Source of the DNA: Candidatus Eiseniibacteriota bacterium
GTDB lineage: Bacteria; Eisenbacteria; RBG-16-71-46
Assembly (NCBI GenBank): GCA_963707915.1
Contig: OY970178.1
Span: 2,112,001-2,176,000 of the forward strand
DNA length: 64,000 bases
Reading direction: 5' to 3'
In this document: in pieces, positions 13,733-42,192 of the stretch
How the letters are laid out: each line of letters starts with the position of its first letter
Numbering within the stretch: position 1 is the first letter of the stretch
The notes under the pieces: model-generated
The model's database searches: none
What the model was told of the DNA's origin: nothing
What the model saw: the letters and a program-made list of their open reading frames with translations, nothing else
Made by a program: the position numbers and the translations under genes

Positions 13733-13734
13733 CC

Positions 13735-26218: not shown

Positions 26219-26225
26219 CCGCCGC

Positions 26226-26690
26226 TCAGCGCCCCGCTTCCAGCTCCCCCACCGCCCGCAGGGCGCGCTCGCACAGCTCGGGCAGGGCGTCGCGCACCGC
26301 CGGGGTCATGGCGCCGCCGACGGTGTACGGGTCCAGCACCTCGACCGCGATGATCCGCAGCTGCCGCGGAAAGTGCAGCCCGAGGCGCTCGGCCAGGTCC
26401 AGCATCTCGGGGAAGCCGGCGAAGTGCGGCGTGGGGTTCTGGACGCGCGCCAGCGAGGCCGCGGCGATCTCGTGGACCGCGCCCGGCGCGTGGGCACCCG
26501 TGCAGGCGGCGTCGAGCACCACCGCGGCGTCGTAGCCCGCCAGCACGTCGAGCAGCGCCAGGCCGTGCAGCGCGGTGGCCTCGACGTCGGCGCGGCCCGC
26601 CAGGCGCGGCGCCAGCTCCGCCACGGCCAGGTGGCCGATGGCGTCGTCCGCCAGCAGGTCGTTGCCCAGCCCCAGCACGATGATCCTCAT
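26226..26690 (-). CDS. Hydrogenase maturation protease
   Basis: LGLGNDLLADDAIG, VVLDA, PH motif; directly downstream of the [NiFe] large subunit gene. Confidence 0.9.
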   Translation of the reverse strand: MRIIVLGLGNDLLADDAIGHLAVAELAPRLAGRADVEATALHGLALLDVLAGYDAAVVLDAACTGAHAPGAVHEIAAASLARVQNPTPHFAGFPEMLDLAERLGLHFPRQLRIIAVEVLDPYTVGGAMTPAVRDALPELCERALRAVGELEAGR

Positions 26691-26856
26691 GACGGCCGCG
26701 TCCCGCTCATGCGCCTGCCTCCCACGAACGCGGGAGCCGCCGCCGGCGCGGACGCTCCGGCGACGGCCCCCGGCTCAACGGCCGGTCGCCGCGCGGGGTG
26801 CGGCCCCGGACCTGCGAAGATCCGCAGGAGCCCCGCAACGGCGCCGGCCTGCCCGG

Positions 26857-28377
26857 CTATCTCACCTTCGGGTCGCGGCGGATCTCCTGCACCAGCCCAC
26901 GATCCGGACCGTAGAGCCGCGCGATCAGCGGCATCTCCCCCGGCAGCGCGTGCGTGGCACAGCCGAAGCACGGGTCATAGGCGCGGAACGCCATCTCGAC
27001 CATGTTCAGCAACCCGTCGTTGACCTTGCCCTTCGAGATCAGCCCCTTGGCGGCCTTGTCCACGCTCATCGCGATGCGGGCCGCGTTGTTCTGGGTCGCG
27101 ACGATGAGGTTCGCCATCTTGATGATGCCGTTCTCGTCGGTCTCGTAGTGGTGGAACAGCGTGCCGCGCGGGGCCTCGACCGCGCCGATCCCGACCGAGG
27201 GCTTCTTGGTCGGGAGGTTGCGGATGTCCGGGCTCACGATGTCCGGGTCGTTCAGCAGCTCGACCATGCTCTCGGCGGCCTGGAGCAGTTCGACGCAGCG
27301 CGCCCAGTGGTTGGCCAGCGTGTGATGCACCGGCTTCCCGCCGAGCGTGGCGTAGAGCTCTTCGTAGGCCTTCTGCGCCAGCGGCGTGGCCATGCCGTCC
27401 GAAGCGTTCAGCCGCGCCATCGGGGCCACCGCGAACAGGCTGGTGCCCGGCCCATCCACGAAGCCCTTCCAGCCCAGCGGCTTGAGGAACGGGAACTTGA
27501 TGTAGCTCCACTCCTCGACGTGCTCGTCGATGTAGTCGCGGTACTTCTGGGCCGGGAACTTGGCGTACTCCTTGCCGGCCGGGTCCACGACGCGGAGCAG
27601 GCCGTCGTAGAAGTTCACCTTGTTGTTCGCGTCCACCATGCCCATGTAGTGGGTCTTGTGGGTGTAGGCGTCGGACGTGATCAGCTTCACGTACTCCGGG
27701 TTCCCCAGGACGATCTTCTTGAAGACCTCGAGCGTGAATTCGCCGAACCCGACCGCCTCCTGCGCCAGCTCCTTGAACCGCGGCAGGTCGGAGGGCGCCA
27801 GGCCCTTGGCGACGCCGCCGGGCAGGCCGAGCACGGGGTGGATCACCTTGCCGCCGAAGTACGCGATCATCTCGCGCACGCGCCGGCGCATGCTGATGAC
27901 CTGCTTGCCGACGTCGAGCCCGACCGCTTCGATCACGCCCACGACATTGCGCTTCGCGGCGGGCGCGTCCGGCCCGACGATGAAGTCGGGGCCGCCCAGG
28001 ATGTAGACGTGCAGCGCGTGGTCCTCGAACGTGAAGGCGTTGTAGACCAGCTCGCGGATCTTCCTCCCCGCGGGCGGCGGCTCGACCTGGTAGAGGTCGT
28101 CGAGCGCCTTGGTGGCCGCCATGTGGTGCGCGGTCGGGCACACCCCGCAGATGCGGCTGGTGATCTGCGGCATGTCCTCCGCGGGCCGGCCGATGCTGAA
28201 CACCTCGAATCCCCGCAGCTCGGGGATCTGCAGGTAGGCGTGCTCGACGTCGCCCTGCTTGTCCAGGAAGATGTCGATCTTCCCGTGCCCCTCGAGGCGC
28301 GAGATCGGGTCGATGGTGATGCGTCTTCCGGCGGCCCCGGCGTCGCCCTTCGGTACGGTTCCAGTGACTGGGTTCAT
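26857..28377 (-). CDS. mvhA: [NiFe]-hydrogenase large subunit, MvhA/group 3c type
   Basis: PISRLEGHG, L1 RICGVCP, EAPRGTL, L2 RAYDPCFGCATH followed by a cleavable C-terminal extension; mvhD/G and hdrABC in the same operon. Confidence 0.9.
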   Translation of the reverse strand: MNPVTGTVPKGDAGAAGRRITIDPISRLEGHGKIDIFLDKQGDVEHAYLQIPELRGFEVFSIGRPAEDMPQITSRICGVCPTAHHMAATKALDDLYQVEPPPAGRKIRELVYNAFTFEDHALHVYILGGPDFIVGPDAPAAKRNVVGVIEAVGLDVGKQVISMRRRVREMIAYFGGKVIHPVLGLPGGVAKGLAPSDLPRFKELAQEAVGFGEFTLEVFKKIVLGNPEYVKLITSDAYTHKTHYMGMVDANNKVNFYDGLLRVVDPAGKEYAKFPAQKYRDYIDEHVEEWSYIKFPFLKPLGWKGFVDGPGTSLFAVAPMARLNASDGMATPLAQKAYEELYATLGGKPVHHTLANHWARCVELLQAAESMVELLNDPDIVSPDIRNLPTKKPSVGIGAVEAPRGTLFHHYETDENGIIKMANLIVATQNNAARIAMSVDKAAKGLISKGKVNDGLLNMVEMAFRAYDPCFGCATHALPGEMPLIARLYGPDRGLVQEIRRDPKVR

Positions 28378-28437
28378 TGGCTTGCCTTCCCCGGTTTCAA
28401 CCGATCCGCCGTCGGCTTCCTGTGATCTCGCGATGGT

Positions 28438-29328
28438 TCAACGCGCACCTCCGCCGCTCCCCGCGCTGGCGAGCGCCGGCATCGCGTTGACGAGCTCCGA
28501 CCCGATGCCCAGCTTCGCGGGCGAGACGCCGAGCGCCAGCCCGATCAGCTGCGTGAAGTAGAGCACCGGCACGTTGAGGTTCGTCCCGAACTCGCTGTTG
28601 ACCTGCTTCTGGTAGCACTCGAGGTTGACCTGGCAGAGCGGACAGGCGGTGGCGATGATCGCCGCCCCGGACTGCACCGCGTTCTCCAGCAGGTTCCGCA
28701 CCAGGCTGAGCGCGGCCTCGCGGTTGGTGATCAGCAGCGCCCCCCCGCAGCAGCGCAGCTTGAGCCGGTATTCGACCGGCTCCGCGCCGACCGCGGTCAT
28801 CAGGTCCTCGAAGAACCGCGGCGACTCGACGTCCTCGTGGTCCTTCCGGGGCCGCAGGATCTGGCAGCCGTAGTAGGGCGCCACCTTGAGCCCGGCCAGC
28901 GGCCGGCGCACGCGCTTCTTGATCTCCTCGAGGCCGACGTCCTTCACCAGCACGTCGATCAGGTGACGCACCTCGGAGGTCCCCTCGAACCTCAGGTCGT
29001 CCTCGGCCAGGGCCTCGTTGATGTGCTCCTTCAGGTCCGGCTCGTGCGTCAGGTGCTTGCGTGCCGAGTACATGTTCTTGTAGCAGCCGCTGCACGGCGC
29101 GACGACGTCCAGCTTGGTCCGCTCCGCGATCGCCAGGTTGCGCGCCGAGAGCGTGTTCGCCAGCAGCTCGTCGATGTTGAAGTAGGTGGTCGCGCCGCAG
29201 CAGTTCCAGTCCTCGAGCTCCTGGAGCTCGACGTCGAGGGCGCGCGTCGTCTCCAACGCGGACTCGTGGTAGCTCCTCGCCATCTTCTCCAGCGAGCATC
29301 CCGGGAAGTACGCGTACTTCCTGGTCAT
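28438..29328 (-). CDS. hdrB: Heterodisulfide reductase subunit B-like (CCG domains)
   Basis: YFPGCSL, WNCCGA, PCSGC, YYGCQILRP, RCCGG, ACPLCQVNL. Confidence 0.9.
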   Translation of the reverse strand: MTRKYAYFPGCSLEKMARSYHESALETTRALDVELQELEDWNCCGATTYFNIDELLANTLSARNLAIAERTKLDVVAPCSGCYKNMYSARKHLTHEPDLKEHINEALAEDDLRFEGTSEVRHLIDVLVKDVGLEEIKKRVRRPLAGLKVAPYYGCQILRPRKDHEDVESPRFFEDLMTAVGAEPVEYRLKLRCCGGALLITNREAALSLVRNLLENAVQSGAAIIATACPLCQVNLECYQKQVNSEFGTNLNVPVLYFTQLIGLALGVSPAKLGIGSELVNAMPALASAGSGGGAR

Positions 29329-29906
29329 CTCTCCTCCACCGGGACGATCTTCCGGACCATCCGTTTGAAGTTCTCCAGCCGCTTGATCCGCGGCGGCAGC
29401 ACCGGCATGCGGCCCTTCAGCATCAGGCCGGTGGCGGTCGCCGCCTCCTGCAGCATGTCCTGGAAGCCGAAGGAGAACAGGTAGGTCGTCGCCAGCACCG
29501 GCTCGTAGGACCGGCCGCTCTTCATGATGGTCTGGATGAACGTCTCCGAGAACGTCGGGCCGATCAGGTCCTTGCCGTACTCGCTGTGCCAGATCGAGTA
29601 GCGCTTGAGCGCGTACATCAGCTCGGCGATGTCGATCCCCCGCGGGCACCGCACCGTGCACATGTAGCACGACGCGCAATACCAGTAGGTGTTCGCCCGG
29701 AGCGTCTCTTCCTTCCGGTTCGCCCGGATCATCGCGATGATCCGCCGCGGCGTGTGGCTCATGAAGCCGCCGGAGGCCACCGGGCAGGACCCGGAACAGG
29801 TCCCGCACTGGATGCAGGTGTTCACCGGGTTGCCGGTGGAGGCGTGGAGGAGGTTGTCGACCTCCCCGATGAAGTCCAGCCGCTTCTCCATGGTCCCCGT
29901 GCTCAT
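29325..29906 (-). CDS. hdrC: Heterodisulfide reductase subunit C-like (2x4Fe-4S)
   Basis: CIQCGTCSGSCP and CASCYMCTVRCPRGI; ATGA overlap with hdrB. Confidence 0.88.
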   Translation of the reverse strand: MSTGTMEKRLDFIGEVDNLLHASTGNPVNTCIQCGTCSGSCPVASGGFMSHTPRRIIAMIRANRKEETLRANTYWYCASCYMCTVRCPRGIDIAELMYALKRYSIWHSEYGKDLIGPTFSETFIQTIMKSGRSYEPVLATTYLFSFGFQDMLQEAATATGLMLKGRMPVLPPRIKRLENFKRMVRKIVPVEER

Positions 29907-30325
29907 TTCTTCTCGCTTGCCTTCGCGGCCGACGCCTTCAGCAGCGCCTCGATCCGCTCCAGGAGCAACCGCGGCTCGACCGGCTTCTCCATCAACTCGT
30001 CCACCTCGACGAAGTGCGGGTGGAGCGCCTGGCTGCCGAACAGGAAGGCGATCTGCTCGCGGATGCCGGTCATGATCAGGACGGGGATCTCGCGCAGCTT
30101 GGGGTCCCGGCTCATCTTGCGCGCGATCATGACGCCCTCGGCGCCGCGCCCCATCATGATGTCGAGCAGCAGGAGGTCGTACTTCTTCTTCTGCAGCGCC
30201 GCGAGGCCGTCCTTCGGGTTGTGGGCGACGTCGACATCGTACTTCGCGGCCGTCAGGATGGACTTGATGCCATCGACGAAATCGGGATCGTCGTCGATCA
30301 TCAGCAGTTGCTTGCGATCGCTCAT
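29903..30325 (-). CDS. Single-domain response regulator (REC only)
   Basis: MIDDDPDF, LLLDIMM (phospho-Asp), IMTG, EKP; no output domain. Confidence 0.9.
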   Translation of the reverse strand: MSDRKQLLMIDDDPDFVDGIKSILTAAKYDVDVAHNPKDGLAALQKKKYDLLLLDIMMGRGAEGVMIARKMSRDPKLREIPVLIMTGIREQIAFLFGSQALHPHFVEVDELMEKPVEPRLLLERIEALLKASAAKASEKK

Positions 30326-31485
30326 CGCTGGTCTCCGGGATCACGGGTGGTTGGGGCAGCCGGGGCCTCGCCGGCCGGGCGGGTGCTTTCTGCGGTATGC
30401 ACAGGCAGGCGGACGGTGAACGTCGTCCCCCTGCCGATCTCACTCTCGACCGAGATGGTGCCGTGGTGGGCCTCGATGATCCGGCGCGTGAGCGCCAGGC
30501 CCAGCCCGCATCCCGCCTCGGCGTCGGGACCGAGCTTGCCACGGTAGAACGCGTCGAAGACGGAGGGCACGTCCTCCGCCGCGATGCCGATGCCGGTGTC
30601 GGCGACCGCGACCACGACCTGGCCGGCCTCCACCGCGGCGCTCACGGTCACGCGACCCCCCGGGTGCGTGTACTTGACGGCGTTGCCGACCAGGTTGACC
30701 AGCGCCTCGGTCAGGATGGTCTCGTCACCGAGCACCGGCGGCAGCGACCCGGGGGCGGCGTCGGTGATGGTGATGTCCTTGCGGGTCGCGTGCGGCTGCA
30801 CGCTCTCGATCGCGCGGGAGATCGCCGACCGGACCGACACGGGGACGAACTCGCCGCCGATCCCCGCCGCGGGGACCGACACCGCCCGCAGCCAGCTCTG
30901 GATCATCTTGAGCAGGTCGGCGATGCGGACCTTGAGGCGTTCGAGACGCTCCTTCTGCGGCCCGCCGAGCACGGGCTCCAGCTCGGCGGTGAGCACGAAC
31001 AGGTTCTGCTGGACCGCGCTCAGCGGCGAGCGCAGCTCGTGGGAGATGATCGCCGCGAAGTTCTGCTGCAGCATCTCCTTCTCCCGGCGCAGCGAGATGG
31101 CCTCCAGCACCAGGCGCCGGCGCTCGACGCCGCGCTGGACGATCAGGCGGAGCTCGTCGGGCGTGAAGGGCTTGGGCAGGAAGTCGAAGGCCCCGCGCTT
31201 CATCGCCTCGACCGCGGACTCCACCGTCGAGTAGCCGGTGATGACGATGGTCACGATCGTCGGGTCGACCCCACGCATGCCCTCCAGCACCTCGAATCCG
31301 GAGATGCCCGGCATCATCAGGTCCACCAGGACCAGGTCCGGGGCGAACTCCGCCGCCCGCTTCAGGCCCTCGGTCCCGTCCGGGGCGGTGACGATCTCGT
31401 AGCCCCCGCCCTCCAGCACCGCGAGGCAGGAATCGAGGACGATCTCCTCGTCGTCGATGATCAGGATCCGGCTGGGCTTGTCCAC
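30322..31485 (-). CDS. Hybrid response regulator / histidine kinase (REC-HisKA-HATPase), cytoplasmic
   Basis: IIDDEE...DLMMPG...KPF REC domain, ISHELRSPL H-box, NLVGNAVKY, DTGIGI, GLGL; GTG start at 31485. Confidence 0.9.
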   Translation of the reverse strand: MDKPSRILIIDDEEIVLDSCLAVLEGGGYEIVTAPDGTEGLKRAAEFAPDLVLVDLMMPGISGFEVLEGMRGVDPTIVTIVITGYSTVESAVEAMKRGAFDFLPKPFTPDELRLIVQRGVERRRLVLEAISLRREKEMLQQNFAAIISHELRSPLSAVQQNLFVLTAELEPVLGGPQKERLERLKVRIADLLKMIQSWLRAVSVPAAGIGGEFVPVSVRSAISRAIESVQPHATRKDITITDAAPGSLPPVLGDETILTEALVNLVGNAVKYTHPGGRVTVSAAVEAGQVVVAVADTGIGIAAEDVPSVFDAFYRGKLGPDAEAGCGLGLALTRRIIEAHHGTISVESEIGRGTTFTVRLPVHTAESTRPAGEAPAAPTTRDPGDQR

Positions 31486-31487
31486 GT

Positions 31488-33488
31488 CTACGCCGCCTCC
31501 TCCAGCGACACCGGCAGGCGCACCACGAACGTGGTGCCCTCGCCGACCTTGCTCTCGACCGCGATGGTCCCGCGGTGCTCCTTGACGATCCCGTAGCTGA
31601 TCGCCAGTCCCAGCCCTGTCCCGCGGCGGGCCCCCTTGGTGGTGAAGAACGGGTCGAAGATCCGCTCCAGGTCCGCCTCCTTGATGCCGCACCCGGTGTC
31701 GGCGAACTCGAACTCGACGAAGCGGCCCGACGCGTCCACCCGCGTGGTCAGGGTCAGGCGGCCGTCCGCCGGCGTCGCCTCCGCCGCGTTGATGATCAGG
31801 TTCATGAACACCTGCTGCATCTGCGAGGGGTCCATCGGCACCGGCGGCAGGTCCTCGCCGAACCGGCGCACCAGCTCGATGTTGCGGAACAGCGGCTGGT
31901 TGGCCACCAGCGCGACGCACTCCTGCAGCACGGTGTTCACGTTGCACGGGCGCTCGTCGGGCTTGCTCTGGCGCGAGAAGTCCAGCAGCCCGCGGACGAT
32001 CTTGCGGCAGCGGTTCGCCTGGGTGACGATCTTCTGCAGCGACGAGCGCGTCGAGCCCTCGCCCGGGTTCTTCTCGAGCAGCAGCTGCGAGTAGGTCACG
32101 ATGCCGGTCAGCGGATTGTTGATCTCGTGGGCCACGCCGGCGGCCAGCTGCCCAATGAGGGCGAGCCGCTCCGACTCCATGACCTTGCGCGCGGCCTGCT
32201 CCTTGAGCTGCTCGTCCCGCCGCTTCAGGGCCGCGGCCATGCTGTTGAAGCTCTCGGCCAGCTCCTGGAACTCGTCCCCCGAGCGGATCTCGACCCGCTG
32301 GTCCAGGTTCCCGCGGGCGAGCTGGTCCGCGCCGGAGACCAGCTGCTTCAGCGAGCCGGAGATGCGCTGCGACAGGTAGTGGGACAGCGTGAGCGCCAGC
32401 AGCGAGCCGATCAGCGTGACCGCCAGGAACACGATCACGGTGCGGCGGCGGACCTCGACGTACTTCCCCTCCAGCAGCCCCACGTACAGCATGCCGATGA
32501 TGGCGCCGCCGTAGTCGCGGATCGGTTCGTAGGCGGTGATGCGCCAGTCGCGAACGACGTAGGCGCGGCGGATCCACTTCTCGCCGCGCAGCACGACCGC
32601 GTCGTAGACGTTCCGGGCGGCGCGCGTGCCGATCGCCCGCGAGCCGTCCGGGTTCAGGACGTTGGTCGCGATCCGCATGTCGCCCTGGAAGATGGTCGCC
32701 GTCCCCATGTCGCGCCCGCGGTACTGCAGGCCCTGGAACACGGTCTGCTTGATCTTGTCGACGATCTCGTGGTTGCGGTTCAACAGCACGCCGCCGTAGA
32801 CGACACCGATGAAGCGGTGCTCGAAGTCGAACACCGGCGCGGCCGCCTTGAGCGCCATGCCGGTGGTGGAGTACCGCTCGGTCCGCGGCCGGGCCATCTC
32901 GGTCGGGACCAGCTCGATCGTCGCCCGCGCCGCGAGCTCGGGCGAAGTCAGGACCAGCTCCTGGTGAGGGATCAGCACCGTCGCGGCGACCGTCTCGTGC
33001 CGCTCCAGCACCGCCCGCACCAGCTGCTGACGGCTCTGGTCGTCGCCGTACACCCCCGGGTTCGAGGTCCGCAGGATCACGACCCCGCGGGCGTCGGTCA
33101 GGGTCAGGGCGTCGAGGTGCTCCTCCTTGCAGATGCCCGAGAGCCGGCGCAGCAGCCGGTCCCGGCTGCCGGCGTACACGGGCGAGCGGACGAAGTCCCG
33201 GTCCGAGACGAACCGGACCGCGTCGCTGATCCGCAGCAGGTTGTTCTGGTAGATCTCGCGCGCGGAGTTGAGGTCGGTGCCCACCTTCTCCTGGGCCTGC
33301 TCCACGAACCGGTCGCCGATGACCCACGTCCCCACCAGGCTGAGGATCACGCTGATCAGGATGATGATCAGCAGGAAGCTCAGCTCCAGCTTGGCGCCGA
33401 TGCGCAGCCGGAACAGCCGCGCCAGGCCGCCGCCTTCGAGCGGCGGCCCGTTGCGCAGCTTCCCCAGGATGGCGGGCAGGAGGCTCAC
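31488..33488 (-). CDS. Membrane sensor histidine kinase (Cache-HAMP-HisKA-HATPase)
   Basis: Two TM helices flank an extracytoplasmic Cache-like region (ATIFQGDMRIATNV...GSRAIGT...AYEPI...GMLYVG). HAMP DEFQELAESFNSM, GVAHEINNPL, DPFFTTK, GTGLGL. GTGA overlap with mvhG. Confidence 0.9.
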   Translation of the reverse strand: MSLLPAILGKLRNGPPLEGGGLARLFRLRIGAKLELSFLLIIILISVILSLVGTWVIGDRFVEQAQEKVGTDLNSAREIYQNNLLRISDAVRFVSDRDFVRSPVYAGSRDRLLRRLSGICKEEHLDALTLTDARGVVILRTSNPGVYGDDQSRQQLVRAVLERHETVAATVLIPHQELVLTSPELAARATIELVPTEMARPRTERYSTTGMALKAAAPVFDFEHRFIGVVYGGVLLNRNHEIVDKIKQTVFQGLQYRGRDMGTATIFQGDMRIATNVLNPDGSRAIGTRAARNVYDAVVLRGEKWIRRAYVVRDWRITAYEPIRDYGGAIIGMLYVGLLEGKYVEVRRRTVIVFLAVTLIGSLLALTLSHYLSQRISGSLKQLVSGADQLARGNLDQRVEIRSGDEFQELAESFNSMAAALKRRDEQLKEQAARKVMESERLALIGQLAAGVAHEINNPLTGIVTYSQLLLEKNPGEGSTRSSLQKIVTQANRCRKIVRGLLDFSRQSKPDERPCNVNTVLQECVALVANQPLFRNIELVRRFGEDLPPVPMDPSQMQQVFMNLIINAAEATPADGRLTLTTRVDASGRFVEFEFADTGCGIKEADLERIFDPFFTTKGARRGTGLGLAISYGIVKEHRGTIAVESKVGEGTTFVVRLPVSLEEAA

Positions 33489-34456
33489 CCTCGCTTCGGC
33501 ACCTTTCTGCGGAGCAGGGACTTGGCCAGTCCGTAACGGTTGAACGTCCCGACCGGGTCCGGGATGCCCGCGAGGACCAGGTCGATCGCCGCCGCGTCCC
33601 GGGGGCCGACGTTCGAGGCCACCGAGGAGAGGATCTTCGCGCCCTGGTCCTTCACCCGCGAGGTCGCGCCGAAGCAGCCGGTGCACGGCATGTTCCCCTG
33701 GATGCAGACCGCCTCGCAGCCGCCCCGCGTCGCGGGGCCCATGCAGATCACGCCCTGCGCCAGGACGCACTTCTCCGGGTCGATCACCACCTGGTGGGGC
33801 CGCTTGAACTCGGTGAACGCCAGGTCGGTGGGCTTGCTCGCCTTGCGCGGGCACTCGTCGCACAGCGCGATGTCGGGCGCCAGCACGGTCCCCTTCGGCG
33901 GCAACTTGCCCTCCAACAGCGCCCCGACCGCGGCCTTGGTGAGCTTGGGAGTGGGCGGGCAGCCCGGGATGGTGTAGTCGACGTCCACCACCTGGTCGAG
34001 CGACCGCACCATCTCGCGCAACACCGGCAGGTGGAGCGGGTGCCCCGCCTGCGTGGACGAGGACAGCGGGCGCGTCCCCGCCTCGTTCGCCGTGGACGGG
34101 CTGTCGCCGTAGGCGAAGCGGAGGATCTGCTCGAGCGGGAACTGGTTCGCCAGGCCCGGGATGCCGCCCGAGGCGGCGCACGAACCGTAGGCGATCAGGA
34201 CCTGGCTCTTGCGCCGCAGCAGGTGCGCCATCTCCTCCTGCTCGGAGGTGCGCACGGCGCCGTTCAGGAACGTGGCGACGATGGACTTGTCCGCCATCGC
34301 CTCGACGTCCTTCTTCTTGAAGTCCATCGCGCACGGCCAGAAGATGATGTCCACCGCCTCGACCACGCCGAGGATGTCCTCGGCCAGGTCCACGATGGCC
34401 TCTTCGCAGCCACCGCAGGAGGCGCACCAGTAGAACGCGACCTTGGGCTTGCTCAT
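33485..34456 (-). CDS. mvhG: [NiFe]-hydrogenase small subunit, MvhG type
   Basis: WCASCGGC, YGSCA, PGCPP, CDECP, CMGPATRGGC, PCTGCFG. Confidence 0.88.
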   Translation of the reverse strand: MSKPKVAFYWCASCGGCEEAIVDLAEDILGVVEAVDIIFWPCAMDFKKKDVEAMADKSIVATFLNGAVRTSEQEEMAHLLRRKSQVLIAYGSCAASGGIPGLANQFPLEQILRFAYGDSPSTANEAGTRPLSSSTQAGHPLHLPVLREMVRSLDQVVDVDYTIPGCPPTPKLTKAAVGALLEGKLPPKGTVLAPDIALCDECPRKASKPTDLAFTEFKRPHQVVIDPEKCVLAQGVICMGPATRGGCEAVCIQGNMPCTGCFGATSRVKDQGAKILSSVASNVGPRDAAAIDLVLAGIPDPVGTFNRYGLAKSLLRRKVPKRG

Positions 34457-34944
34457 CGGGCCTCCTGCTGTGCGGCGTGGGCGTGAGCCTCCGCTTCGCT
34501 CATCACCTCGCCGTCCCACGACTGGAACTTCCCGGGCAGGTCGAGCGGACCGAGGACCTTGACCTTCTCCACCATGTCGTTGATCACCGACTTGACCTTG
34601 TCGCCCTCGGCGGCCGAGATCCACTCCAGCCGCAGCCGCTCCGGCTCGATGCCCATGTCGGCGAGCATCCGCTGGAGGATCTGGAACCGGCGCAGCATCT
34701 TGTAGTTGCCCTCCCCGTAGTGACAGTCGCCGGGGTGGCATCCGCCGATGAGCACGCCGTCGGCGCCCTTGGCGAAGGCGTCCAGGATGAACTGCGGGTC
34801 CACGCGGCCCGAGCACATCAGCCGGATGGTCCGGACGTTGGCCGCGTACTTCATGCGCGACACGCCGGCCAGGTCCGCCGCCGTGTAGGTGCACCAGTTG
34901 CAGAAGAACGCGACGATCCGCGGCTCCCAGGGTTTGTCATTCAT
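34453..34944 (-). CDS. mvhD: MvhD (hydrogenase iron-sulfur subunit delta, 2Fe-2S)
   Basis: FFCNWCTYTAADLAG, MCSGRVDP, GADGV, GCHPGDCHY, WISAAEG. Confidence 0.93.
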   Translation of the reverse strand: MNDKPWEPRIVAFFCNWCTYTAADLAGVSRMKYAANVRTIRLMCSGRVDPQFILDAFAKGADGVLIGGCHPGDCHYGEGNYKMLRRFQILQRMLADMGIEPERLRLEWISAAEGDKVKSVINDMVEKVKVLGPLDLPGKFQSWDGEVMSEAEAHAHAAQQEAR

Positions 34945-36920
34945 TGGCCAGGATCCCTTCGATCTCGCTGTAGATCTCTTCGTCCTCGAACAGGTTCTGG
35001 ACGATCGAACCGGACGGACAGGAGGCCACGCAGGTCCCGCAGCCCTTGCAGAGCGCTTCGTTGATGACCGCCTTCTTCGTGCTCTCGGCGAACGTGATCG
35101 CGGTGTACGGGCAGAGCGGGATGCAGGACTTGCAGCCCGAGCAGTCCTCCTCGCGGACGTAGGCGGTGTTCGGCTCCTGCTCGATGTGCCCGCGGCAGAT
35201 CAGCGAGTAGGCCTCCGCCGCCGCCGCGCCCGCCTGGGCCACGGTGTCCGGGATGTCCTTCGGCCCCTGGCAGCAGCCCGCCAGGAACACACCGTCGGTG
35301 AAGGTGCTGACCGGCGCCAGCTTCGGGTGCCGCTCGAGGAAGAAGCCCTCGGTGCCGCAGCTCATGTTGAGCATCCGGCGCACGTCCTGCGCGTCGGCCT
35401 GCGGCTCCAGCCCGGTCGCGAGCACCAGCATGTCCACCGGGAACTTGAGCACGCGGCCGAGCAGCGTGTCCTCCGCCTGCAGCAGCAGCCGGTCGCCCTC
35501 GGGGTCGCTCGGGTCGGGGAACACGTCCGCCACCTTGCCGCGGACCATGTGCACGCCCTCGCCGGCGATGCGGTTGTAGAACTCCTCCATGCTCTTCCCC
35601 GGGGTCCGCATGTCGATGTAGAAGTTGTAGACCTCGGCGTGCGTGTGCTCCTTGATCAGGTGCGCGAGCTTCAGCGAGTACAGGCAGCACACCCGCGAGC
35701 ACCACTTGTTGTTGTTCTCGTCGCGCGAGCCGACGCAGTGGACGATGCCCACCGTCTGCGGCTTCTTGCCCTTGCGCGTCACCAGCTCGCCGCCGGTGGG
35801 CCCCGAAGCGTTGACCAGGCGCTCGATCTCGAGCGCGTTGTAGACGTTCGGGTAGCGGCCGTAGCCGTAGAAGGGCATGCGCTTCGCGTCGAAGGTCTTG
35901 AACCCGGTCGCCACGATCACCGTGCCGACCTTGATCTCCTTGAGCTCTTCCTTCTGCGAGAAGTCGATGGCCTTGCGGTCGCCGCAGGCCTTGACGCACG
36001 GCTCCTTGCAGTTCCCGTGCGTCCACACGCGGCAGGTGCCCGGGTCGATCATGACGATCGGCGGCACCGCCTGCGGGAACGGCATGAACACCGGCTTGCG
36101 CTTGCCCAGCCCCTCGTTGAACTCGTCGGCGAAGCGCGGCTCGCGATAGACGCAGGCCTCCACGCACTCGCCGCAGCCGGTGCACAGGTCCTCGACGATG
36201 TAGCGCGGCTTGCGCCGGATCGTGACGTCGTAGTTGCCCACGAAGCCGCTCACCTGGGCGACCTCGGAGTACGATCCACAGCGTGATGTTGGGGTGCGCG
36301 TTCACCTGCGACATCTTGGGCGTGAGGATGCAGGCGGCGCAGTCGAGCGTGGGGAAGGTCTTGTCGAACTTCGCCATGTGCCCGCCGATCGTGGCCTCAC
36401 GCTCGACGAGGTAGACCTTCTGGCCGCCGTCGGCCAGGGTCAGCGCGGCGTGGATGCCGGCGATCCCGCCGCCGACCACCAGCACGGCCGGGTGGATCGG
36501 GACCTTCTTGATCTCGAGCGGCTTGTGGAACGGCACGCGCCGGATGGCGGCCCGGACCAGGGCAAGCGCCTTGCGCGTCGCCTCCGCACCGTCGGTGTGG
36601 ACCCAGGCGTCGTGCTCGCGGATGTTCACCATCTGGAAGAAGAACGGGCTCAGGCCGCCCTTCATGGTGGCCGTGCGGAACGTGCGCTCGTGCAGCAGCG
36701 GCGAGCACGCCGCGACGACCACGCGGTTCAGCTTGTGCTCCTTGATGTCCTGCTGGATCAGCTCCTGGCCCGGATCGGAGCACATGTACTTGTAGTTCCG
36801 GGAGACGGCCACCCCGGGCAACTTGGCCGCGTACTTGGCCACCGCCTCCACGTCCACCATGGCGGCGATGTTGGTGCCGCAGTGACAAACGTAGAACCCG
36901 ATTCTAACGGGCTCGCTCAT
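34937..36920 (-). CDS. hdrA: Heterodisulfide reductase subunit A (FAD, multi-FeS); one frameshift near 36272
   Basis: GFYVCHCGTNI, VVGGGIAG, KTFPTLDCAACILTPK in one frame; CTGCGEC, CVGSRD, CSRVCC, GCCQGPKDI, CKGCGTC in another. Removing one base at TGG-ATCG-TAC-TCC-GAG joins them. Confidence 0.9.
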
Positions 36921-36923
36921 CGG

Positions 36924-38129
36924 TCAACCCTCCAGTGACTCGGCCAGCAGTTCGACCACGTCCCGGACCACCAGCTGTTTGTCGTGGCCGAGCGTCTTCA
37001 CGGCGTCTTCGAAACGGAACAGCTCCAGCGGACAGGAGACGGCCAGCACGTCCGCGCCGGCGGCGACGGCTTCCTTCACCCGCCGTTCGGACAACCGGTC
37101 CATCCCCTTCGACTTGTAGTAGGTGTCCAGCCACATCCCGCCACCGCCGCCGCCACAGCACAGCGAGTTGGCCCGGCTGTGGGCCATCTCGACCAGCGTC
37201 ACGCCCGGGATGGCGCCGAGCAGCTCGCGCGGCTCGTCGTAGCAGCCCATGCCCCGCCCGAGGCAGCAGTTGTCGTGGTAGGCGACCTTGACCTCGAGCT
37301 TCTTCGTGAGCCGGGGCCGCAACGACTCGAGGTACCGCGCCAGGAACGGCGTGGTGTGTTCGACCTCCCAGCCGGCCTCGGCGAACGGGTAGCGGCTGCG
37401 GAAGGCGTTGAAGGCGTGTGGATCCCCGGTCACGACGCGCTTGAACGAGTGCTTGCGCAGCGCCTTCAGGTTCGCCTCGCTGAGCTTCTCGAACAGGCCG
37501 GGCTCCCAGGTCAGGCGCCCGCACTCGCCGGCGCACTGCTCCTCGTGCCCGAGGATGGCGAAGTCCACGCCCAGCGCGTTGAACAGCTTCGCCGTGGCCT
37601 TGCTGTTCGCCTGGCCGCGGGGATAGAAGGAGGTGTAGCACTCCACGAACCACAGCACGTCCACCGGGCCGGGCTTCTCCGCCAGGCTGCGCACCGGCAC
37701 GCCCGCGGTGGCCGCCCAGGCGGCCCGCTTCCGCCCCGACTCGCCCATCGGGTTGCCGTAGCGCGACATGTTCTCGAGCGACTTCTGCAGCTCGCCCGGC
37801 AGCTCCTTCAGGTTGGCCAGCGTCTGCTCCTTGACCAGCGGCAGCAGGACGTCGGTGAGCCGGATGCCGCGCGGGCACTTGCTCAGGCAGGCGTAGCAGG
37901 AGACGCAGCGCAGCAGGCTGCCGGAGGCGATGACCTCGTCGAGCAGGCCCCGCCACAGCATGTTGATGATCGCCCGCGGCGGGTACTCCATGTCCTCCCC
38001 GTACGGGCACGTGCCCGCGCACGTCCCGCACTGCAGACAGGTCATGATCTGCTGGCCCTCGGGTGTGGCCATGAGGGTTTCCAGCGTGGTGTCGGTCGGA
38101 CAGGTGACAGCGCGTTCGACGATGGCCAT
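36924..38129 (-). CDS. HdrD/GlpC-like soluble (Fe-S)-binding oxidoreductase (4Fe-4S dicluster plus CCG domains)
   Basis: CLQCGTCAGTCP, CVSCYACLSKCPRGI, GNPMG, YHDNCCLGR, LCCGGGGG, SCP. Confidence 0.85.
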   Translation of the reverse strand: MAIVERAVTCPTDTTLETLMATPEGQQIMTCLQCGTCAGTCPYGEDMEYPPRAIINMLWRGLLDEVIASGSLLRCVSCYACLSKCPRGIRLTDVLLPLVKEQTLANLKELPGELQKSLENMSRYGNPMGESGRKRAAWAATAGVPVRSLAEKPGPVDVLWFVECYTSFYPRGQANSKATAKLFNALGVDFAILGHEEQCAGECGRLTWEPGLFEKLSEANLKALRKHSFKRVVTGDPHAFNAFRSRYPFAEAGWEVEHTTPFLARYLESLRPRLTKKLEVKVAYHDNCCLGRGMGCYDEPRELLGAIPGVTLVEMAHSRANSLCCGGGGGGMWLDTYYKSKGMDRLSERRVKEAVAAGADVLAVSCPLELFRFEDAVKTLGHDKQLVVRDVVELLAESLEG

Positions 38130-38142
38130 GGATCGTCCCTTC

Positions 38143-40142
38143 CTATCCCTGCATCGCTTCCCAAACCAGTTCGGCGAGGTCTTTGACCACGATCTTCCCC
38201 TCGTTGTCGGTGGTCTTCACGGCATCGCGGAACATGGCGATGTCCTTCGGACAGCTGACCACCAGCGTCGAGACCCCCGGCAGCCCGGCAACCTCGCGGA
38301 TGCGGCTTTCGGCGGGACGCTCCTTGATGCCAGGCACGTCCTCCATCCAGATCCGGCCGCCGCCCGCGCCGCAGCAGTAGCTGCGGTTGCGGCTGCGCGG
38401 CATCTCCACCAGCTCGAGCCCCAGCCCGGCGAGCACGCGGCGCGGCGGGTCGTAGACGCCGTTGTAGCGACCGAGGTAGCAGGGATCGTGATAGGTGACC
38501 CGTCCGGCGAGGCGCTGCTTCAGCGGCAGCCGCCCCTGCGTCAGCAGCTGGTCCAGCAGTTCGGTGTAGTGCAGGACCGGGACCGCGCGGCCGTTCCAGC
38601 GATACTCGTTCTTCAGCGTGTTGTAGGTGTGCGGGTCGGTCGTCACCAGCGTCTTGAACTGGGCCTTCTCCATGACCTGCAGGTTCTTCTCCCGCAGCAT
38701 CTCGAAGAGCCCCTCCTCCCCGATGCGGCGCACGTCGTTGCCGGCGTTGCGCTCGCCCTCGTAGAGCAGGCCGAAGTCCACGCCCGACCGCTGGAGGATC
38801 TCCGCGGTCTTGCGGGTGATGTCCTCGAGCCGCGGGTCGTACGAGGCGTAGTCGCCCACGTACCACAGGACCTCGGCCGGTTCCTTGCGCGCGTCCTTGA
38901 TCTTGGTGGCCAGCGGCTGGGTCCACTTCGCCCGCATCCGGTCCGACTTGCCGAAGGAATTGCCGTAGCGGTTCAGGTTGGCCAGCATGTCCTGGAGCGT
39001 CTTCTCGACCGCGCCCTCGCCGACCAGGTGACGGCGCATCTGCACGACGGTGGGGATCTGCTCGTTCAGGACCGCGCAGCGCTCCATGCAGGACATGCAG
39101 GTCGTGCAGGCCCAGATCTCGGCCTCGGCCACCACGCCGCCGATGAGCGCGGGAGCGGCCTTGCCGGGCTTCGCCAGGCCCGCTTCGAGCGTGTGCTTCT
39201 TGAGCTTCTGGATGATCTGCTGGGGCTCGAGCGGGAAGCCCGAGGTCGTGGCCGGGCAGGCACGGTCGCAGCGGCCGCACTCCGCGCAGGAGAAGCCCCC
39301 GAGCAGCTGCTTCCAGGTGAAGTCGTCCCACTTCGCCGCGCCCGCCGCCGACTCCTCCGTCCCGCCGGCGATGTCCAGGTCGCCCGCTGGGCGGAGGCTG
39401 CCGAAGAGCACGTTGAACGGCGAGGCCAGCAGGTGCAGGTGCTTGGAGTACGGCAGGTAGACGAGGAAGCACAGCACGCCGAAGGTGTGCACCCACCACA
39501 TCGACTTGGCCAGCCCCTCGGCCCGCTCCGCCGTCAGCCCGGAGACCAGCGGGACGAGCAGGCTGGCGAACGGGGCCCAGGCGCTCGACGGGGCGCCCTC
39601 GGCGATCAGCCGGAACGCGCCGCCGAACAGCGAGCTGAGCATCAGGATGCCGATCCAGACCAGGATCAGGTTCGCGTCGATGCTGAGGTGCAGGTGCGGC
39701 GGCGCGAAGAATGCGCGCCGCAGCGCGGAAACGACCAGCGCGGCCAGCACGACGACCGCGAACACGTCCAGGAACAGGGCGACCACGCCGACCGTGTCGG
39801 GGTACGGGAGCGGCAGCCCGGGGAACAGGCCGCGCACCAGCCCCCAGTTGAAGCAGACGACGTAGAGCACGAAGCCCCAGAAGATCAGGAAGTGGGGCAG
39901 CCCGATGGCTCGGCTCGTTGAAGATGCGCGGCTGGAGGAAGACGTGCTTGACCACGTTCAGCGACGCGCTTCGCCGGCTGGTCGAAGCGGTTCTCGGGGC
40001 GGCCCCTGCGCACCAGCCCGACGAGCTGGCTCACCCGCCATCCGAACACGCCGAAGGCCACCAGCGTCGACACCCACAGCACGACGAGCCCCGGCAACCC
40101 CAGGAACGAGACCACGACGGGATCCTGCCCCATGGCGCTCAT
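38143..40142 (-). CDS. Membrane-bound FadF/HdrF/EMO-like oxidoreductase (heme-b TM region, 2x4Fe-4S, CCG); frameshifts near 39905-39960
   Basis: HFLIFWGF, WWVH...LPYSKHLH His ligands, CAECGRCDRACP, CTTCMSCMERC, YHDPCYLGRYN, CCGAGGG; ATGA overlap with etfA. Confidence 0.85.
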
Positions 40143-41110
40143 CCCTTGCGCGCCTTGATCTTCTCGGTCAGCACCGGCAGCAGCTCGAGCACGTCCGCGC
40201 ACACCCCGTACTTCGCGACGTCGAAGATCGGGGCGGCCGCGTCGGTGTTGACCGCCACGATGGTCTGGGAGGCCTGCATCCCCTCGACGTGTTCGGGCGC
40301 GCCGCTGATGCCCAGCGCCAGGTACAGCCGCGGCTTCACGCTCATGCCGGACTTGCCGACCTGGCGGCTCAGGGCCAGCCAGCCCTGGTCGACCACCGGC
40401 CGCGAGCCGCACACCGCCCCGCCCAGCGCCGCCGCCAGCTCCTCGGCCAGCTCGATGTTGTCCTGGGTCTGGATGCCGCGCCCCACCGCCACCAGCACGT
40501 CCTGCTTGGTGATGTCGACGTCGCCGGCCTCGGGCTCGATGAAGCGCTCGAACTTCGACCGCCGGGGCCTCGACCGGCAGCGCGACGGTCTCGACCGTCG
40601 CGGCCTTGTCGGTGCGGCCGGCGTCCGCCGGGAACGCGCCGGCGGAGACGCTGACGATGCCGCGCCCGTCGGCGAGCGCGACGTCGGAGAGGATCTTGCC
40701 GCCGAACAGCTGGCTGGTGACCACCACGCCGCCGCCCTCGGCCCGCAGGCCGCGGCAGAAGTTGACGAACGGCAGGCCGGCCCGCGCCGAGAGCACGGAG
40801 CCCACGCCCATCGCCAGGTTGGTCCAGCCGAGGAACAGCGAGCCCGTCCTGCTTCTGCTCGACCAGCGTCTTGAGCAGGCCCGCCACCGTGCCGGCCGGC
40901 GGGATCTCGGCCGGGAGTCTCGACCGCGAACACCGCGTCCGCCAGGCCGAGCTTCGCCGCCACCGCCGCCGCGTCCTTGCCGATCACCGCCGCGTGCAGG
41001 GGGACCTTCAGCTCGTCGGCCAGCTTGCGGCCCGCGCCCAGCATCTCGAAGGTGATGTCCGCGACCTCGCCCTTGAGGTGCTCCGCGAGGATGAGGATTC
41101 CGTTTGCCAT
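40139..41110 (-). CDS. etfA: Electron transfer flavoprotein alpha subunit; about three internal single-base frameshifts
   Basis: ILILAEH N-terminus; C-terminal VAVGRG, GSRPVVD, QVGKSG, LYLALGISGAPEHVEGM, AVNTDAAAPIF. Frame breaks near 40912, 40848 and 40556. Confidence 0.9.
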   Translation of the reverse strand: MANGILILAEHLKGEVADITFEMLGAGRKLADELKVPLHAAVIGKDAAAVAAKLGLADAVFAVETPGRDPAGRHGGGPAQDAGRAEAGRARCSSAGPTWRWAWAPCSRRGPACRSSTSAAACGPRAAAWWSPASCSAARSSPTSRSPTGAASSASPPARSRRTPAAPTRPRRSRPSRCRSRPRRSKFERFIEPEAGDVDITKQDVLVAVGRGIQTQDNIELAEELAAALGGAVCGSRPVVDQGWLALSRQVGKSGMSVKPRLYLALGISGAPEHVEGMQASQTIVAVNTDAAAPIFDVAKYGVCADVLELLPVLTEKIKARKG

Positions 41111-41122
41111 GGTCGTCACCCC

Positions 41123-41892
41123 CTAGATCAGGCTCTGGTTGGCGAGCAGGTCCACGATGCGGTCCGCCACGTCCTCCGGCGAGCCCTCCAGCATCTCCGC
41201 GCGTCCCGCGGACTCGGGCTTGTACATGCGCTCGATCGCATAGCGGGCCGGGGCGTCGGTCGAGACGTCCACGGTCTCGAGCTTGGAGGACTTCATCGCC
41301 GCGCGGACCTTGGCGATCGGCACGTAGCGCGGCGGCTTCTCGGCCGACTGGATCCCGAGCACCGCGGGCATCGGGCAGGAGAACTCGCCGCGCAGGCCGC
41401 CGGCGAACTCCTTGGTGACCACCACGCCGGCGCCGTCGGGCGCCACACCGGTCACGACGCCGACGTAGGGCAGGCCGAGCTGGTCGGCGAGGTACGGGCC
41501 GATCTCGCCCTCGAGGTCGTCGATCGCCTGGCTGCGGACCAGGATCAGCGTGTCGGCGGGCAGCGGGGCGGCCTTGAGGAAGTCGGCGAACAGCTGCGCG
41601 GCCGCAGAAGCTCTGGACGCCCGGCCAGGTCGCCGGTGAGCTTGACGACGCGGTCGGCGCCCTTGGCGAACGCCATGAACAGCGACTCGTCCAGCTCGGG
41701 GGCGTCCATCGCCACCACCGTGACCGTGCCGCCGTGCTTCTCCTTCAGCAGCAGGGCCTGCTCGAGCGCGTGCTCATCGGCGTCGCTGAGCTTGAACCTC
41801 AGCCACTCCGCGTCCAGCGACTTCTGGTCCGCGGCGACCGTCAGCTCCTCGACCGTATCGGGAACCGTCTTCAGCAGGACGAACAGGTTCAT
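41123..41892 (-). CDS. etfB: Electron transfer flavoprotein beta subunit; frameshift(s) around 41530-41610
   Basis: LLKTVPD, DEHALEQALLLKEKHGG, AKGADR, QAIDD, PRYVPI motifs spread across frames. Confidence 0.88.
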
Positions 41893-42175
41893 GAGCCGAT
41901 ACCTCGCTTTGGCGATCCTTCTGCGACGTGGTCCGTCGAACGACCTGCGGTGTCACGGTCTCGCGCCGCTCCTGGTGCGGACGGAGGCCGGAACGCGAAG
42001 CGACGGCGACGGACCCGTGCTGCCGTCGCCGGCTCGCGACCGGACACTAGCAGCGCAGGCCGCGACGCCCTACCGGCGCGAAGCCGACCCGGGCATCGAG
42101 CCCCGGTCGGCATCTGATCGGCGGCACCGCTCAGCCTGCACCTCGAAGCGGGACAACAGTTCCGCGCTCTCGCCC

Positions 42176-42192
42176 TGCATGGAGGGTGCCAA
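42176..42192 (-). promoter_or_regulatory. Sigma-54 (-24/-12) promoter candidate for the etf-hdr-mvh operon
   Basis: Minus strand reads TTGGCACCCTCCATGCA: TGGCAC-N5-ATGCA with exact GG-N10-GC spacing, facing etfB. Confidence 0.65.

Follow-up and report, generated by a model that had tools for sequence, protein, structure and literature searches.

A kinase-kinase-receiver module tied to its own HdrCB clade in bacterial Hdr-Mvh clusters: a candidate for protein-level control of heterodisulfide reductase

What is controlled by a signalling chain that is encoded inside a redox operon and carries no output domain of its own? This question is raised by a 64,000-nucleotide stretch of a Candidatus Eiseniibacteriota genome (assembly GCA_963707915.1, contig OY970178.1, positions 2,112,001 to 2,176,000; this whole stretch is called the window below), in which three signalling genes sit between mvhG and hdrC of a cluster for a hydrogenase (Mvh), a heterodisulfide reductase (Hdr) and electron-transfer flavoproteins (Etf). 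We found that the two histidine kinases and the single-domain receiver protein (REC) encoded there form one five-gene module together with HdrC and HdrB, and that REC is predicted to bind the HdrC-HdrB pair. The original prediction, drawn from the bare nucleotide sequence, had placed a relay inside an Hdr-Mvh operon. The location stands, and a more apt description of the unit is a five-gene module that has its own hdrCB clade and moves as a block.

The open reading frame list and searches against Pfam and NCBIfam define a minus-strand run of 14 tightly packed genes, from 41892 down to 26226, in the order etfB, etfA, a gene for an EtfD-type membrane HdrD-like protein, a soluble hdrD, hdrA, mvhD, mvhG, the three signalling genes, hdrC, hdrB, mvhA and a gene for a HycI-type protease (see the table). 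All six MvhADG-HdrABC subunits are thus encoded together here, HdrB with two CCG motifs. The coordinates, strand and domain content first proposed for the signalling trio, and the identity of the flanking hdrA, mvhD, mvhG, hdrC, hdrB and mvhA genes, agree with these searches. The first signalling protein, a sensor kinase of 666 residues, contains sCache_3_3 (E 1.9e-31), HAMP, HisKA and HATPase_c domains and is referred to as the Cache kinase. The second, of 387 residues, contains Response_reg, HisKA and HATPase_c, its receiver being the only sensor-side domain (REC-kinase), and the third, REC, has 140 residues with Response_reg as its sole family. Pfam finds no DNA-binding or enzymatic output domain in any of the three, as had been claimed. 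Both kinases possess HisKA and HATPase_c with readable N, G1 and G2 motifs, and their H-boxes read AHEINNPL in the Cache kinase and SHELRSPL in the REC-kinase. The term phosphorelay used earlier is loose: no Hpt family is among their Pfam matches (E ≤ 0.001), as a classical His-Asp-His-Asp phosphorelay would require, and the middle protein is a receiver-regulated kinase.

REC has the complete phospho-acceptor set, namely D11-D13, D55, T86 and K114 (K114-P115). Among 52 aligned sequences D11-13, T86 and K114 are invariant and D55 is present in at least 90%, and the orthologs share the invariant motifs MMGRGAEG and REQ.AF.F. REC contains no cysteine and is therefore not a redox substrate. It lacks the DNA-binding or AAA+ output domain that characterizes DNA-binding response regulators of the OmpR/PhoB and NtrC classes, and its PhoB/OmpR matches in NCBIfam cover the receiver part only and lie far below cut-off. 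The JGI names of P0124, P0126, P0138 and other REC-only orthologs of ~140 residues are 'DNA-binding response OmpR family regulator' or 'PhoP'.

The junctions from mvhG through the trio to hdrC measure -4, +2, -4 and -4 nt, as had been noted and as can be read directly in the sequence. The mvhG and Cache kinase genes overlap by GTGA (33485-33488); the TAG stop of the Cache kinase is followed, after a 2-nt gap, by the GTG start of the REC-kinase at 31485, with GGAGGAGG upstream; and ATGA overlaps join REC-kinase to REC (30322-30325), REC to hdrC (29903-29906), hdrC to hdrB (29325-29328) and mvhD to mvhG. Internal promoters or terminators had been named as grounds for rejecting an integrated operon; a consensus scan of 25500-43000 gave 1 promoter-like and 4 terminator-like sites, no better than the 0.7 and 5.8 expected from shuffled sequence. 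Metatranscriptome contigs from 3 studies, at ~90-93% identity, bridge the mvhG/kinase, kinase/REC-kinase, REC-kinase/REC and REC/hdrC junctions. One of 2257 nt covers 29300-31449 with hdrC, REC and REC-kinase; another of 3490 nt covers 31429-32927 and 33153-34494, that is the start of the REC-kinase, the Cache kinase, mvhG and the end of mvhD; and shorter contigs in other runs span REC/hdrC, REC-kinase/REC and mvhG/kinase. Some stretches have low cover in these libraries, for example 32954-33127, which we do not interpret. The contigs are consistent with co-transcription of the trio with its neighbours.

The same layout recurs in related genomes. We compared 41 relatives, of which one flagged as unpublished (G026) was counted as a negative only. 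Of the 7 other genomes in the genus, 5 have full-length orthologs of the Cache kinase, 82-85% identical, and one ortholog at 67% identity occurs in another family of the same taxonomic order. Gene order is the same in all 6 relatives with the Cache kinase (the whole block in 5, the contig of the sixth ending inside the REC-kinase gene), and the 4-nt overlap of REC and hdrC is kept in 5 of 5. The recurrence of order and junctions is therefore more than chance. The signalling genes are intact, all their indels against the closest relative being compensated within 9 nt. These observations, together with the metagenome loci described below, support the earlier view that the trio is a conserved part of the operon and neither a recent insertion nor a misassembly.

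A survey of gene neighbourhoods had been proposed as a test of the arrangement. We scanned metagenomes with an alignment of the REC-only protein and obtained 80 loci, with REC 66-96% identical and a locus G+C fraction of 0.41-0.70, onto which the window proteins were mapped; only loci with room on the contig enter each count. hdrC directly follows REC in 77 of 77 loci and the REC-kinase directly precedes it in 77 of 77, the Cache kinase lies before the REC-kinase in 55 of 55, and hdrB comes after hdrC in 62 of 62. The surroundings vary. The window type, with mvhG before and mvhA after the module, was seen at both ends in 7 loci and at one end in 7 more; EtfD before and hdrA after in 13 loci at both ends and in 11 at one; and unrelated DNA before with etfB after in 7 and 9, respectively. 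In L123 a HycI-like gene lies upstream of the module, and two loci have other neighbours. The genes around the module (etfBA, EtfD, hdrD, hdrA, mvhDG and mvhA) are thus found in no fewer than three orders, and the constant unit is a module of five genes, for the Cache kinase, REC-kinase, REC, HdrC and HdrB.

REC is the most conserved module protein, with a mean column identity of 81%, compared with 72% for HdrB and 71% for HdrC. Its orthologs comprise 2650 protein clusters at E ≤ 1e-35, and the 120 orthologs listed measure 130-155 residues. Named orthologs come from metagenome genomes of Verrucomicrobiota, Anaerolineales and Ignavibacteria, Cache kinase homologs are labelled Gemmatimonadales (as is the nearest named homolog of the window), Bacteroidota and Chloroflexota, and no cultured carrier is among the named homologs of kinase and REC. 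Carriers of the module itself are metagenome genomes labelled Gemmatimonadota, Verrucomicrobiota, Bacteroidota and Chloroflexota. We also looked for fusions of REC to HdrC or another partner: 4 longer proteins were found at E ≤ 1e-30, and both that were inspected (P0242, P0243) are frameshift read-throughs.

We examined the converse in 206 genomes of the phylum. Six of them have an HdrC with at least 73% identity, and in 6 of 6 REC and the REC-kinase lie upstream. A further 21 loci in 18 genomes have an HdrC of 27-44% identity in the canonical order hdrC-hdrB-hdrA, and none of the 21 has a REC ortholog; in 3 of them a weak kinase-like match lies 1.3 kb upstream. In the 4 canonical loci with wide flanks, HdrA, MvhD and MvhG are 63-75% identical to those of the window and HdrC and HdrB 32-45%. 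By sequence comparison, the module HdrCB forms a clade separate from canonical HdrCB. It follows that the signalling genes move with an HdrCB clade of their own and that the module has taken the place of canonical hdrCB.

Modelling of REC with HdrA, HdrC or MvhD had been suggested earlier; we assessed contact of REC with the module subunits by a complex model of HdrC, HdrB and REC. The model, built from alignments of 50-52 rows per chain, scored 0.79, compared with 0.00 for the best of 3 controls; among solved complexes 116 of 157 attain this mark, as do 2 of 215 mismatched pairs, counts that serve only as a rough guide for our own alignments and three chains. Contact agreement between runs was at least 79% and partner predicted local distance difference test (pLDDT) scores were at least 81. 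The predicted contacts of REC (residues 12, 14, 17-18, 35-39, 56-63, 65-66, 69-70, 73, 88, 90-92 and 94-96) cover its phosphorylation-site face, that is the loops around Asp55 and the start of helix 1. Its partner surfaces would be residues 52-56 and 98-105 of HdrB and residues 9-22, 99-108, 121-128 and 186-190 of HdrC. By hand count over the 52 sequences, 16 of 29 contact residues of REC are invariant, compared with 29 of 111 other residues. At contact positions conserved in the module clade, canonical proteins match in 7 of 52 cells for HdrC and 6 of 32 for HdrB, versus 194 of 356 and 400 of 652 elsewhere. The HdrC motif NLL[HY]A is deleted in canonical HdrC; in canonical or methanogen HdrB the motif DELL becomes DETK, DEDK, NKLT or DQDA, and DLAEH is not kept. 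The module HdrB retains all ten cluster cysteines in the alignments. Our sequence searches returned solved relatives of HdrB and HdrC, and none of these structures is a complex of REC with Hdr. The model and the residue conservation support binding of REC to HdrC-HdrB.

The input side of the chain points to a small carboxylate. The periplasmic part of the Cache kinase (residues 57-349) is predicted with a pLDDT of 92.2 as a long helix followed by two PDC modules, and its best Foldseek matches are the tandem-PDC sensors vpHK1S-Z8, PctA/PctB, LuxQ and DctB, at 7-15% identity. The second, membrane-side module, which leads into the second transmembrane helix, matches the sCache_3_3 hidden Markov model (PF17202, 109 bits versus a cut-off of 28.8), and PF17201 (Cache_3-Cache_2) matches with E 7.8e-22 over profile positions 74-192 of 299. 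The sensor profile also matches the formate-bound chemoreceptor domains 8py1_A (E 2e-9) and 8py0_A (E 7e-7), and Foldseek aligns it to 8py1_A with a root mean square deviation of 1.9 over 117 columns. In the accessible part of PMC11804620 the formate-binding residues of 8PY1 and 8PY0 are given as T105/R118/Y167 and T100/R111/Y160. In HMMER alignments to both chains these formate-coordinating residues correspond to T265, R272 and Y320 of the kinase, if the paper numbering is converted to chain index by constant offsets of 12 and 8, as we presume. T265, R272 and Y320 are invariant in 54 of 54 sensor domains and are among only 14 invariant columns. The general statement that Cache domains bind carboxylates can thus be sharpened to a formate-type pocket, and formate is a concrete candidate for the ligand. 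One locus, L147 (3741-11800), has the module followed by a formate dehydrogenase (Fdh)-alpha-like molybdoenzyme gene (566 bits versus a cut-off of 666), together with ShyB/ShyC-like electron-transfer subunits and membrane subunits like those of complex I or group 4 hydrogenases; no hdrA or mvh genes were seen there.

A metagenome scan with a full-length alignment of the Cache kinase returned full-length relatives in ~25 of 80 loci, the rest being drawn in by the generic H-box pattern AHEINNPL. Distant Cache kinases (34-44% identity over the full length) at L027, L028, L029, L038 and L041 adjoin genes for other NiFe hydrogenase small or large subunits or HycI-like proteins, without hdrCB. This sensor family may have a broader link to hydrogen metabolism.

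We compared the region upstream of the operon across genomes, since the original prediction had also noted a -24/-12 promoter. The element ahead of etfB is the only match in the window at ≤1 mismatch, where 3.47 are expected by chance, so that the match alone is not significant. In the 5 of 5 genomes of the genus, the window included, it reads TGGCACC[C/G]TCCATGC, lies 241-313 nt upstream of etfB in 4 of 4 relatives and forms an invariant island in an intergenic alignment of 61% mean identity. A sigma-54 promoter is thus conserved upstream of the operon, within this genus only. Consensus matches inside hdrA are a coding motif and were discarded as promoters. In 20 loci of other arrangements the consensus (≤1 mismatch) is absent from the ~330-450 nt upstream of the first gene, and in 9 of 10 loci of the hdrD-etfBA-EtfD-module-hdrA arrangement (L131, L141, L153, L154, L155, L159, L167, L175 and L183) a TGTGA-N6-TCACA palindrome of CRP/FNR type (≤1 mismatch; background 0.03 per 400 nt) lies 170-271 nt upstream of hdrD. 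The promoter type therefore changes while the module remains constant. The genome has 17 strong matches to sigma-54 activators, none in the window. A search of homologous loci for a co-occurring NtrC-family activator had been proposed: a sigma-54 activator gene lies near the module in only 2 of 82 loci (L123, L151), and the one examined, that of L151, is of XylR/V4R type and not a response regulator.

Taken together, we propose, at slightly less than even odds (about 0.45), a kinase chain that responds to formate and ends in REC, which would gate HdrCB post-translationally by phosphorylation-dependent docking. The Cache kinase would sense a small carboxylate, most likely formate, through the Thr/Arg/Tyr pocket of its membrane-side module and pass phosphate to the receiver of the soluble REC-HisKA-HATPase kinase, which in turn would phosphorylate the 140-residue REC, the output of the chain. 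Unphosphorylated REC would dock on a joint surface of HdrC and HdrB, with the face that holds its phosphorylation site turned toward them. Asp55 would lie in this interface, and its phosphorylation may alter or release the contact. The relay would thereby gate, post-translationally, the heterodisulfide-reductase arm of an H2/Etf-linked, HdrA-based and presumably electron-bifurcating complex, with transcriptional control possibly in addition through the sigma-54 promoter conserved in the genus. In this scheme the REC-HdrCB contact is a prediction of the complex model, and we infer the order of phosphotransfer, formate as the ligand and the effects of phosphorylation on the contact and on enzyme activity. 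Of the two outputs considered originally, a distant sigma-54 activator and direct action on the complex, both are possible; the evidence leans to direct action because REC is tied to hdrC in 77 of 77 loci, the complex model passes its controls, and the sigma-54 consensus and activators were not found with the module in other lineages, apart from the two activator loci above. We put forward only tentatively a more far-reaching version, in which the response regulator is a phospho-switchable regulatory subunit of heterodisulfide reductase, part of a mobile five-gene module, and extracellular formate, via two kinases, opens or closes the disulfide-reducing arm of an HdrA-based bifurcating hydrogenase/Etf complex.

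Several observations weigh against gating of HdrCB by REC. The contact is a matter of model confidence and not a measurement, and the 3 controls held neither another receiver domain nor canonical HdrCB, when close cousins of true partners pass such tests. In the interface statistic, surface contacts are compared with the whole remainder of the positions, buried cluster-binding residues among them, and the cells cannot be treated as independent. One REC ortholog, L020 (13138-13560), has an Asn at the phospho-acceptor site (LLLLNVMM), the sole case among the 52 aligned. The loci were found with REC itself and are uninformative on the number of Hdr clusters without it; gene linkage can persist by co-inheritance alone; and the projected gap between REC and hdrC is ≤4 nt in only 53 of 77 loci, with 17-138 nt in the other 24. 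RNA-library contigs may contain DNA, and a single transcript is not proven by them. For formate, the similarity to the formate-binding domain amounts to only 24% identity, and PacF binds formate in its distal module, the matching module here being the membrane-side one. An Fdh-like neighbour occurs in 1 of 87 fetched loci (L147) and none in the window, and the genome of the window has no match to Fdh-alpha (TIGR01591) over the curated cut-off, the best reaching 369 bits. A transcriptional output would fit the conserved sigma-54 promoter of the genus, the core of the Cache kinase, which in NCBIfam is most like AtoS and ZraS, and homologous Cache kinases in Planctomycetota, which adjoin an NtrC-type regulator and a related Hdr/Etf cluster.

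These last points lead to an alternative that we consider unlikely but well worth weighing, in which an unlinked NtrC-type activator receives phosphate from the Cache kinase, the REC-kinase providing a second input, and acts on the sigma-54 promoter upstream of etfB. The relay would then induce its own operon, and REC would be a sink or modulator. AtoS and ZraS pair with sigma-54 activators, JGI calls homologs of the Cache kinase 'NtrC family sensor kinase', and the invariance of the -24/-12 element in the 5 genomes of the genus and the 17 activator matches of this genome are in line with this route. In the Planctomycetota metagenome-assembled genome locus L031, the gene after a homologous Cache kinase encodes a REC and sigma-54 AAA+ regulator, and hdrD-etfBA-EtfD-hdrA come next. 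A precedent exists in Desulfovibrio vulgaris, where, according to the part of PMC3333781 available to us, the response regulator DVU2394 controls the adh/hdr operon DVU2405-2397; there, too, an energy operon that contains Hdr has a two-component system of its own, but DVU2394 binds DNA and is encoded beside the operon, whereas the receiver here is REC-only, lies inside it and has no DNA-binding protein in its module. Against this route stand the rarity of activator genes near the module, the missing consensus in the 20 loci of other arrangements, with the CRP/FNR-type palindrome in 9 of 10 loci of one of them, and the constant travel of the trio with its own hdrCB clade, which it leaves unexplained. 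It can coexist with direct gating.

The same contact model could also be read in the opposite direction, with HdrCB as the input: its redox or substrate state would set the sequestration of REC and so tune the flow of phosphate through both kinases to an unlinked output, integrating an outside signal from the Cache domain with a redox signal from inside. The predicted interface covers the Asp55 loops and the start of helix 1, the surface that receivers present to their kinases, so a bound REC would hide its own phosphorylation site and its sequestration would tune phosphate flow. Two further features suit this arrangement: apart from its receiver the REC-kinase lacks a sensor domain, and the linkage of the module to an HdrCB clade of its own is strict. 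We nevertheless regard it as improbable, since no output protein came to light, HdrB, with all ten cluster cysteines, looks catalytically whole, and the clusters around the module contain HdrA, Mvh and Etf, the setting expected of a working subunit pair. The data are compatible with both this reading and direct gating. Least probable in our estimate is that the five genes are co-inherited without any direct functional tie, the relay controlling something unrelated or acting as a generic phosphate sink, and that tight, overlapping genes are simply seldom split. Overlapping stop and start codons do make separation costly, few REC-only proteins have a known function, and gene neighbourhood alone is weak evidence for binding. 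However, the 24 loci with a gap of 17-138 nt indicate that overlap is not what holds REC and hdrC together. Moreover, the module occupies at least three different positions while the other blocks are shuffled, its HdrCB clade is distinct and has clade-specific residues at the predicted contact, and the complex model passed its controls.

We compared gating of HdrCB by REC with systems of known kind, as each part of the module is one: Cache kinases, REC-kinases, REC-only regulators and Hdr-Mvh. Full-length alignment of HdrB with its counterparts in the methanogen MvhADG-HdrABC complexes (5ODC/5ODH, 7BKB, 8RVU) gives E 2.7e-65 to 7bkb_B and 9.6e-58 to 5odc_B, both CCG motifs included; the ferredoxin domain of HdrC aligns with E 1.9e-21, and homologs of MvhD, MvhG, MvhA and HdrA are all present. 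In contrast, every NCBIfam match here stays below the equivalog cut-off (HdrB 238 of 345 bits, VhuA 390 of 800, VhuG 208 of 450, HdrC 72 of 160), the cluster adds EtfAB, EtfD and a soluble HdrD, and HdrCB is encoded with three signalling proteins, none of which was found beside solved Hdr chains by sequence searches. Bacteria are not known to make CoM-S-S-CoB. Single-domain response regulators that act by protein contact include CheY with FliM, CpdR with ClpXP, and DivK. REC resembles these in its receiver-only build, its full phospho-acceptor set and a predicted partner that is a protein rather than DNA; the predicted partner here is an iron-sulfur redox enzyme, and it would be engaged by the phosphorylation-site face and not only by alpha4-beta5-alpha5. 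In H2 sensing by HoxJ/HoxA (HupT/HupR), a soluble PAS kinase binds the sensory hydrogenase HoxBC and the output is a DNA-binding activator. Both systems would physically couple a two-component system to a hydrogenase-type redox protein, but here the sensor is periplasmic and it is the receiver that is predicted to contact the redox protein. RedCDEF of Myxococcus likewise combines a membrane kinase, a second kinase and a stand-alone receiver in a cluster without a DNA-binding domain; its domain orders differ and it includes no metabolic enzyme. The sensor resembles PacF (Cache_3-Cache_2) and 8PY1/8PY0 (PMC11804620, accessible part) in its sCache_3_3 and profile matches and the aligned Thr/Arg/Tyr. 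It differs from 8PY1/8PY0 in feeding a histidine kinase and not a chemoreceptor and, in that an extra N-terminal PDC module precedes the matching one, which leads into the second transmembrane helix, from the formate Cache domains. The nearest description is in the genome paper of Desulfobacterium autotrophicum (PMC2702500), where genes for a response regulator, a histidine kinase and a CheY-like regulator appear in a figure legend at hdr loci and are not analysed in the part of that paper available to us. Our literature search, whose scope was the text of openly accessible papers without supplements, found no description of a kinase-kinase-REC-HdrC-HdrB module, of signalling genes inside hdr-mvh operons, of a receiver contacting heterodisulfide reductase, or of such post-translational control.

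Sediments, wetlands and soils commonly harbour bacterial Hdr-Mvh (group 3c) clusters. A sensor that always accompanies HdrCB offers an experimental handle, in that its ligand would show when the enzyme is used, and the predicted contact of REC with HdrCB suggests, in a specific and testable form, how an electron-bifurcating complex might be controlled after translation. If true, this would mean that a two-component system acts directly, at the level of proteins, on flavin-based electron bifurcation. Sources label the REC-only family as OmpR/PhoP DNA-binding regulators, and recognition of the module-type HdrCB clade would correct this annotation as well as metabolic reconstructions from metagenomes.

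Table. Features of the operon and its upstream element in the window, in the order of transcription
Feature	Position	Strand	Basis
Sigma-54-type -24/-12 element, TGGCACCCTCCATGC	42177..42191	-	285 nt upstream of etfB; window scan and same-genus alignment
etfB, frame break near 41575	41123..41892	-	Pfam ETF; frame plot; tblastn to relatives
etfA, frame changes near 40870 and 40570	40139..41119	-	Pfam ETF_alpha on C-terminal part; frame plot
Membrane-bound HdrD-like iron-sulfur protein (EtfD/HdrF type)	38143..40131	-	Pfam Fer4 and CCG; N-terminal membrane part with frame breaks ~39900-39960
Soluble HdrD-like protein (Fer4 and 2 CCG)	36924..38129	-	Pfam; NCBIfam TfrB/HdrC-like matches below cut-off
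hdrA, uncompensated 1-nt insertion near 36274	34937..36920	-	Two frames here; Pfam FAD/Fer4
mvhD	34453..34944	-	Pfam FlpD, E 5.8e-56
mvhG, hydrogenase small subunit (VhuG-like)	33485..34456	-	Pfam Oxidored_q6; NCBIfam VhuG 208 bits versus cut-off 450
Sensor histidine kinase: transmembrane helix, tandem PDC/Cache periplasmic domain (~residues 57-349), transmembrane helix, HAMP, HisKA, HATPase	31488..33488	-	Pfam; predicted structure; Foldseek
REC-HisKA-HATPase kinase, N-terminal receiver	30322..31485	-	Pfam; sequence
REC-only single-domain receiver, 140 residues	29903..30325	-	Pfam; alignments
hdrC, module-linked clade	29325..29906	-	Pfam Fer4; PDB HdrC E 1.9e-21; clade split
hdrB, module-linked clade, both CCG motifs	28438..29328	-	Pfam CCG x2; PDB HdrB E 2.7e-65; alignments
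mvhA, NiFe hydrogenase large subunit, 60 nt after hdrB	26857..28377	-	Pfam NiFeSe_Hases; NCBIfam VhuA 390 bits versus cut-off 800
HycI-type hydrogenase maturation protease	26226..26690	-	Pfam HycI

Several conserved genes of the window contain uncompensated frame breaks, namely hdrA, etfA, etfB and the N-terminal part of the EtfD-type gene, a protein described in PMC13083937 (accessible part), and genes for an aconitase and a CoA-transferase are fragmented (46251-48316). The extra nucleotide of hdrA was placed by comparison with a relative (G004), and relatives read hdrA in one frame. These breaks most likely reflect indel errors of the assembly rather than many pseudogenes.

The region upstream of the operon measures 950 nt, toward two divergent genes: one for an ECF (extracytoplasmic function)-type sigma factor (Sigma70_r2; 42843-43883, plus strand), whose coding frame is apparently shifted, and one for a TonB C-terminal domain protein (43891-44355, plus strand). 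Within it an AT-rich stretch, GTAACTGATTGA...GGCAATATATTA (42330-42400, minus strand), lies ~170-200 nt upstream of the -24/-12 element and is common to 4 of the 5 genomes (alignment columns ~150-190); it could be a site for an activator or for integration host factor. In L031, positions 13387-14460, downstream of the homologous Cache kinase and between the NtrC-type regulator and hdrD-etfBA-EtfD-hdrA, encode a protein in which an NtrC-like receiver is fused to a GcvH-like domain and in which no clear lipoyl-lysine motif was seen.

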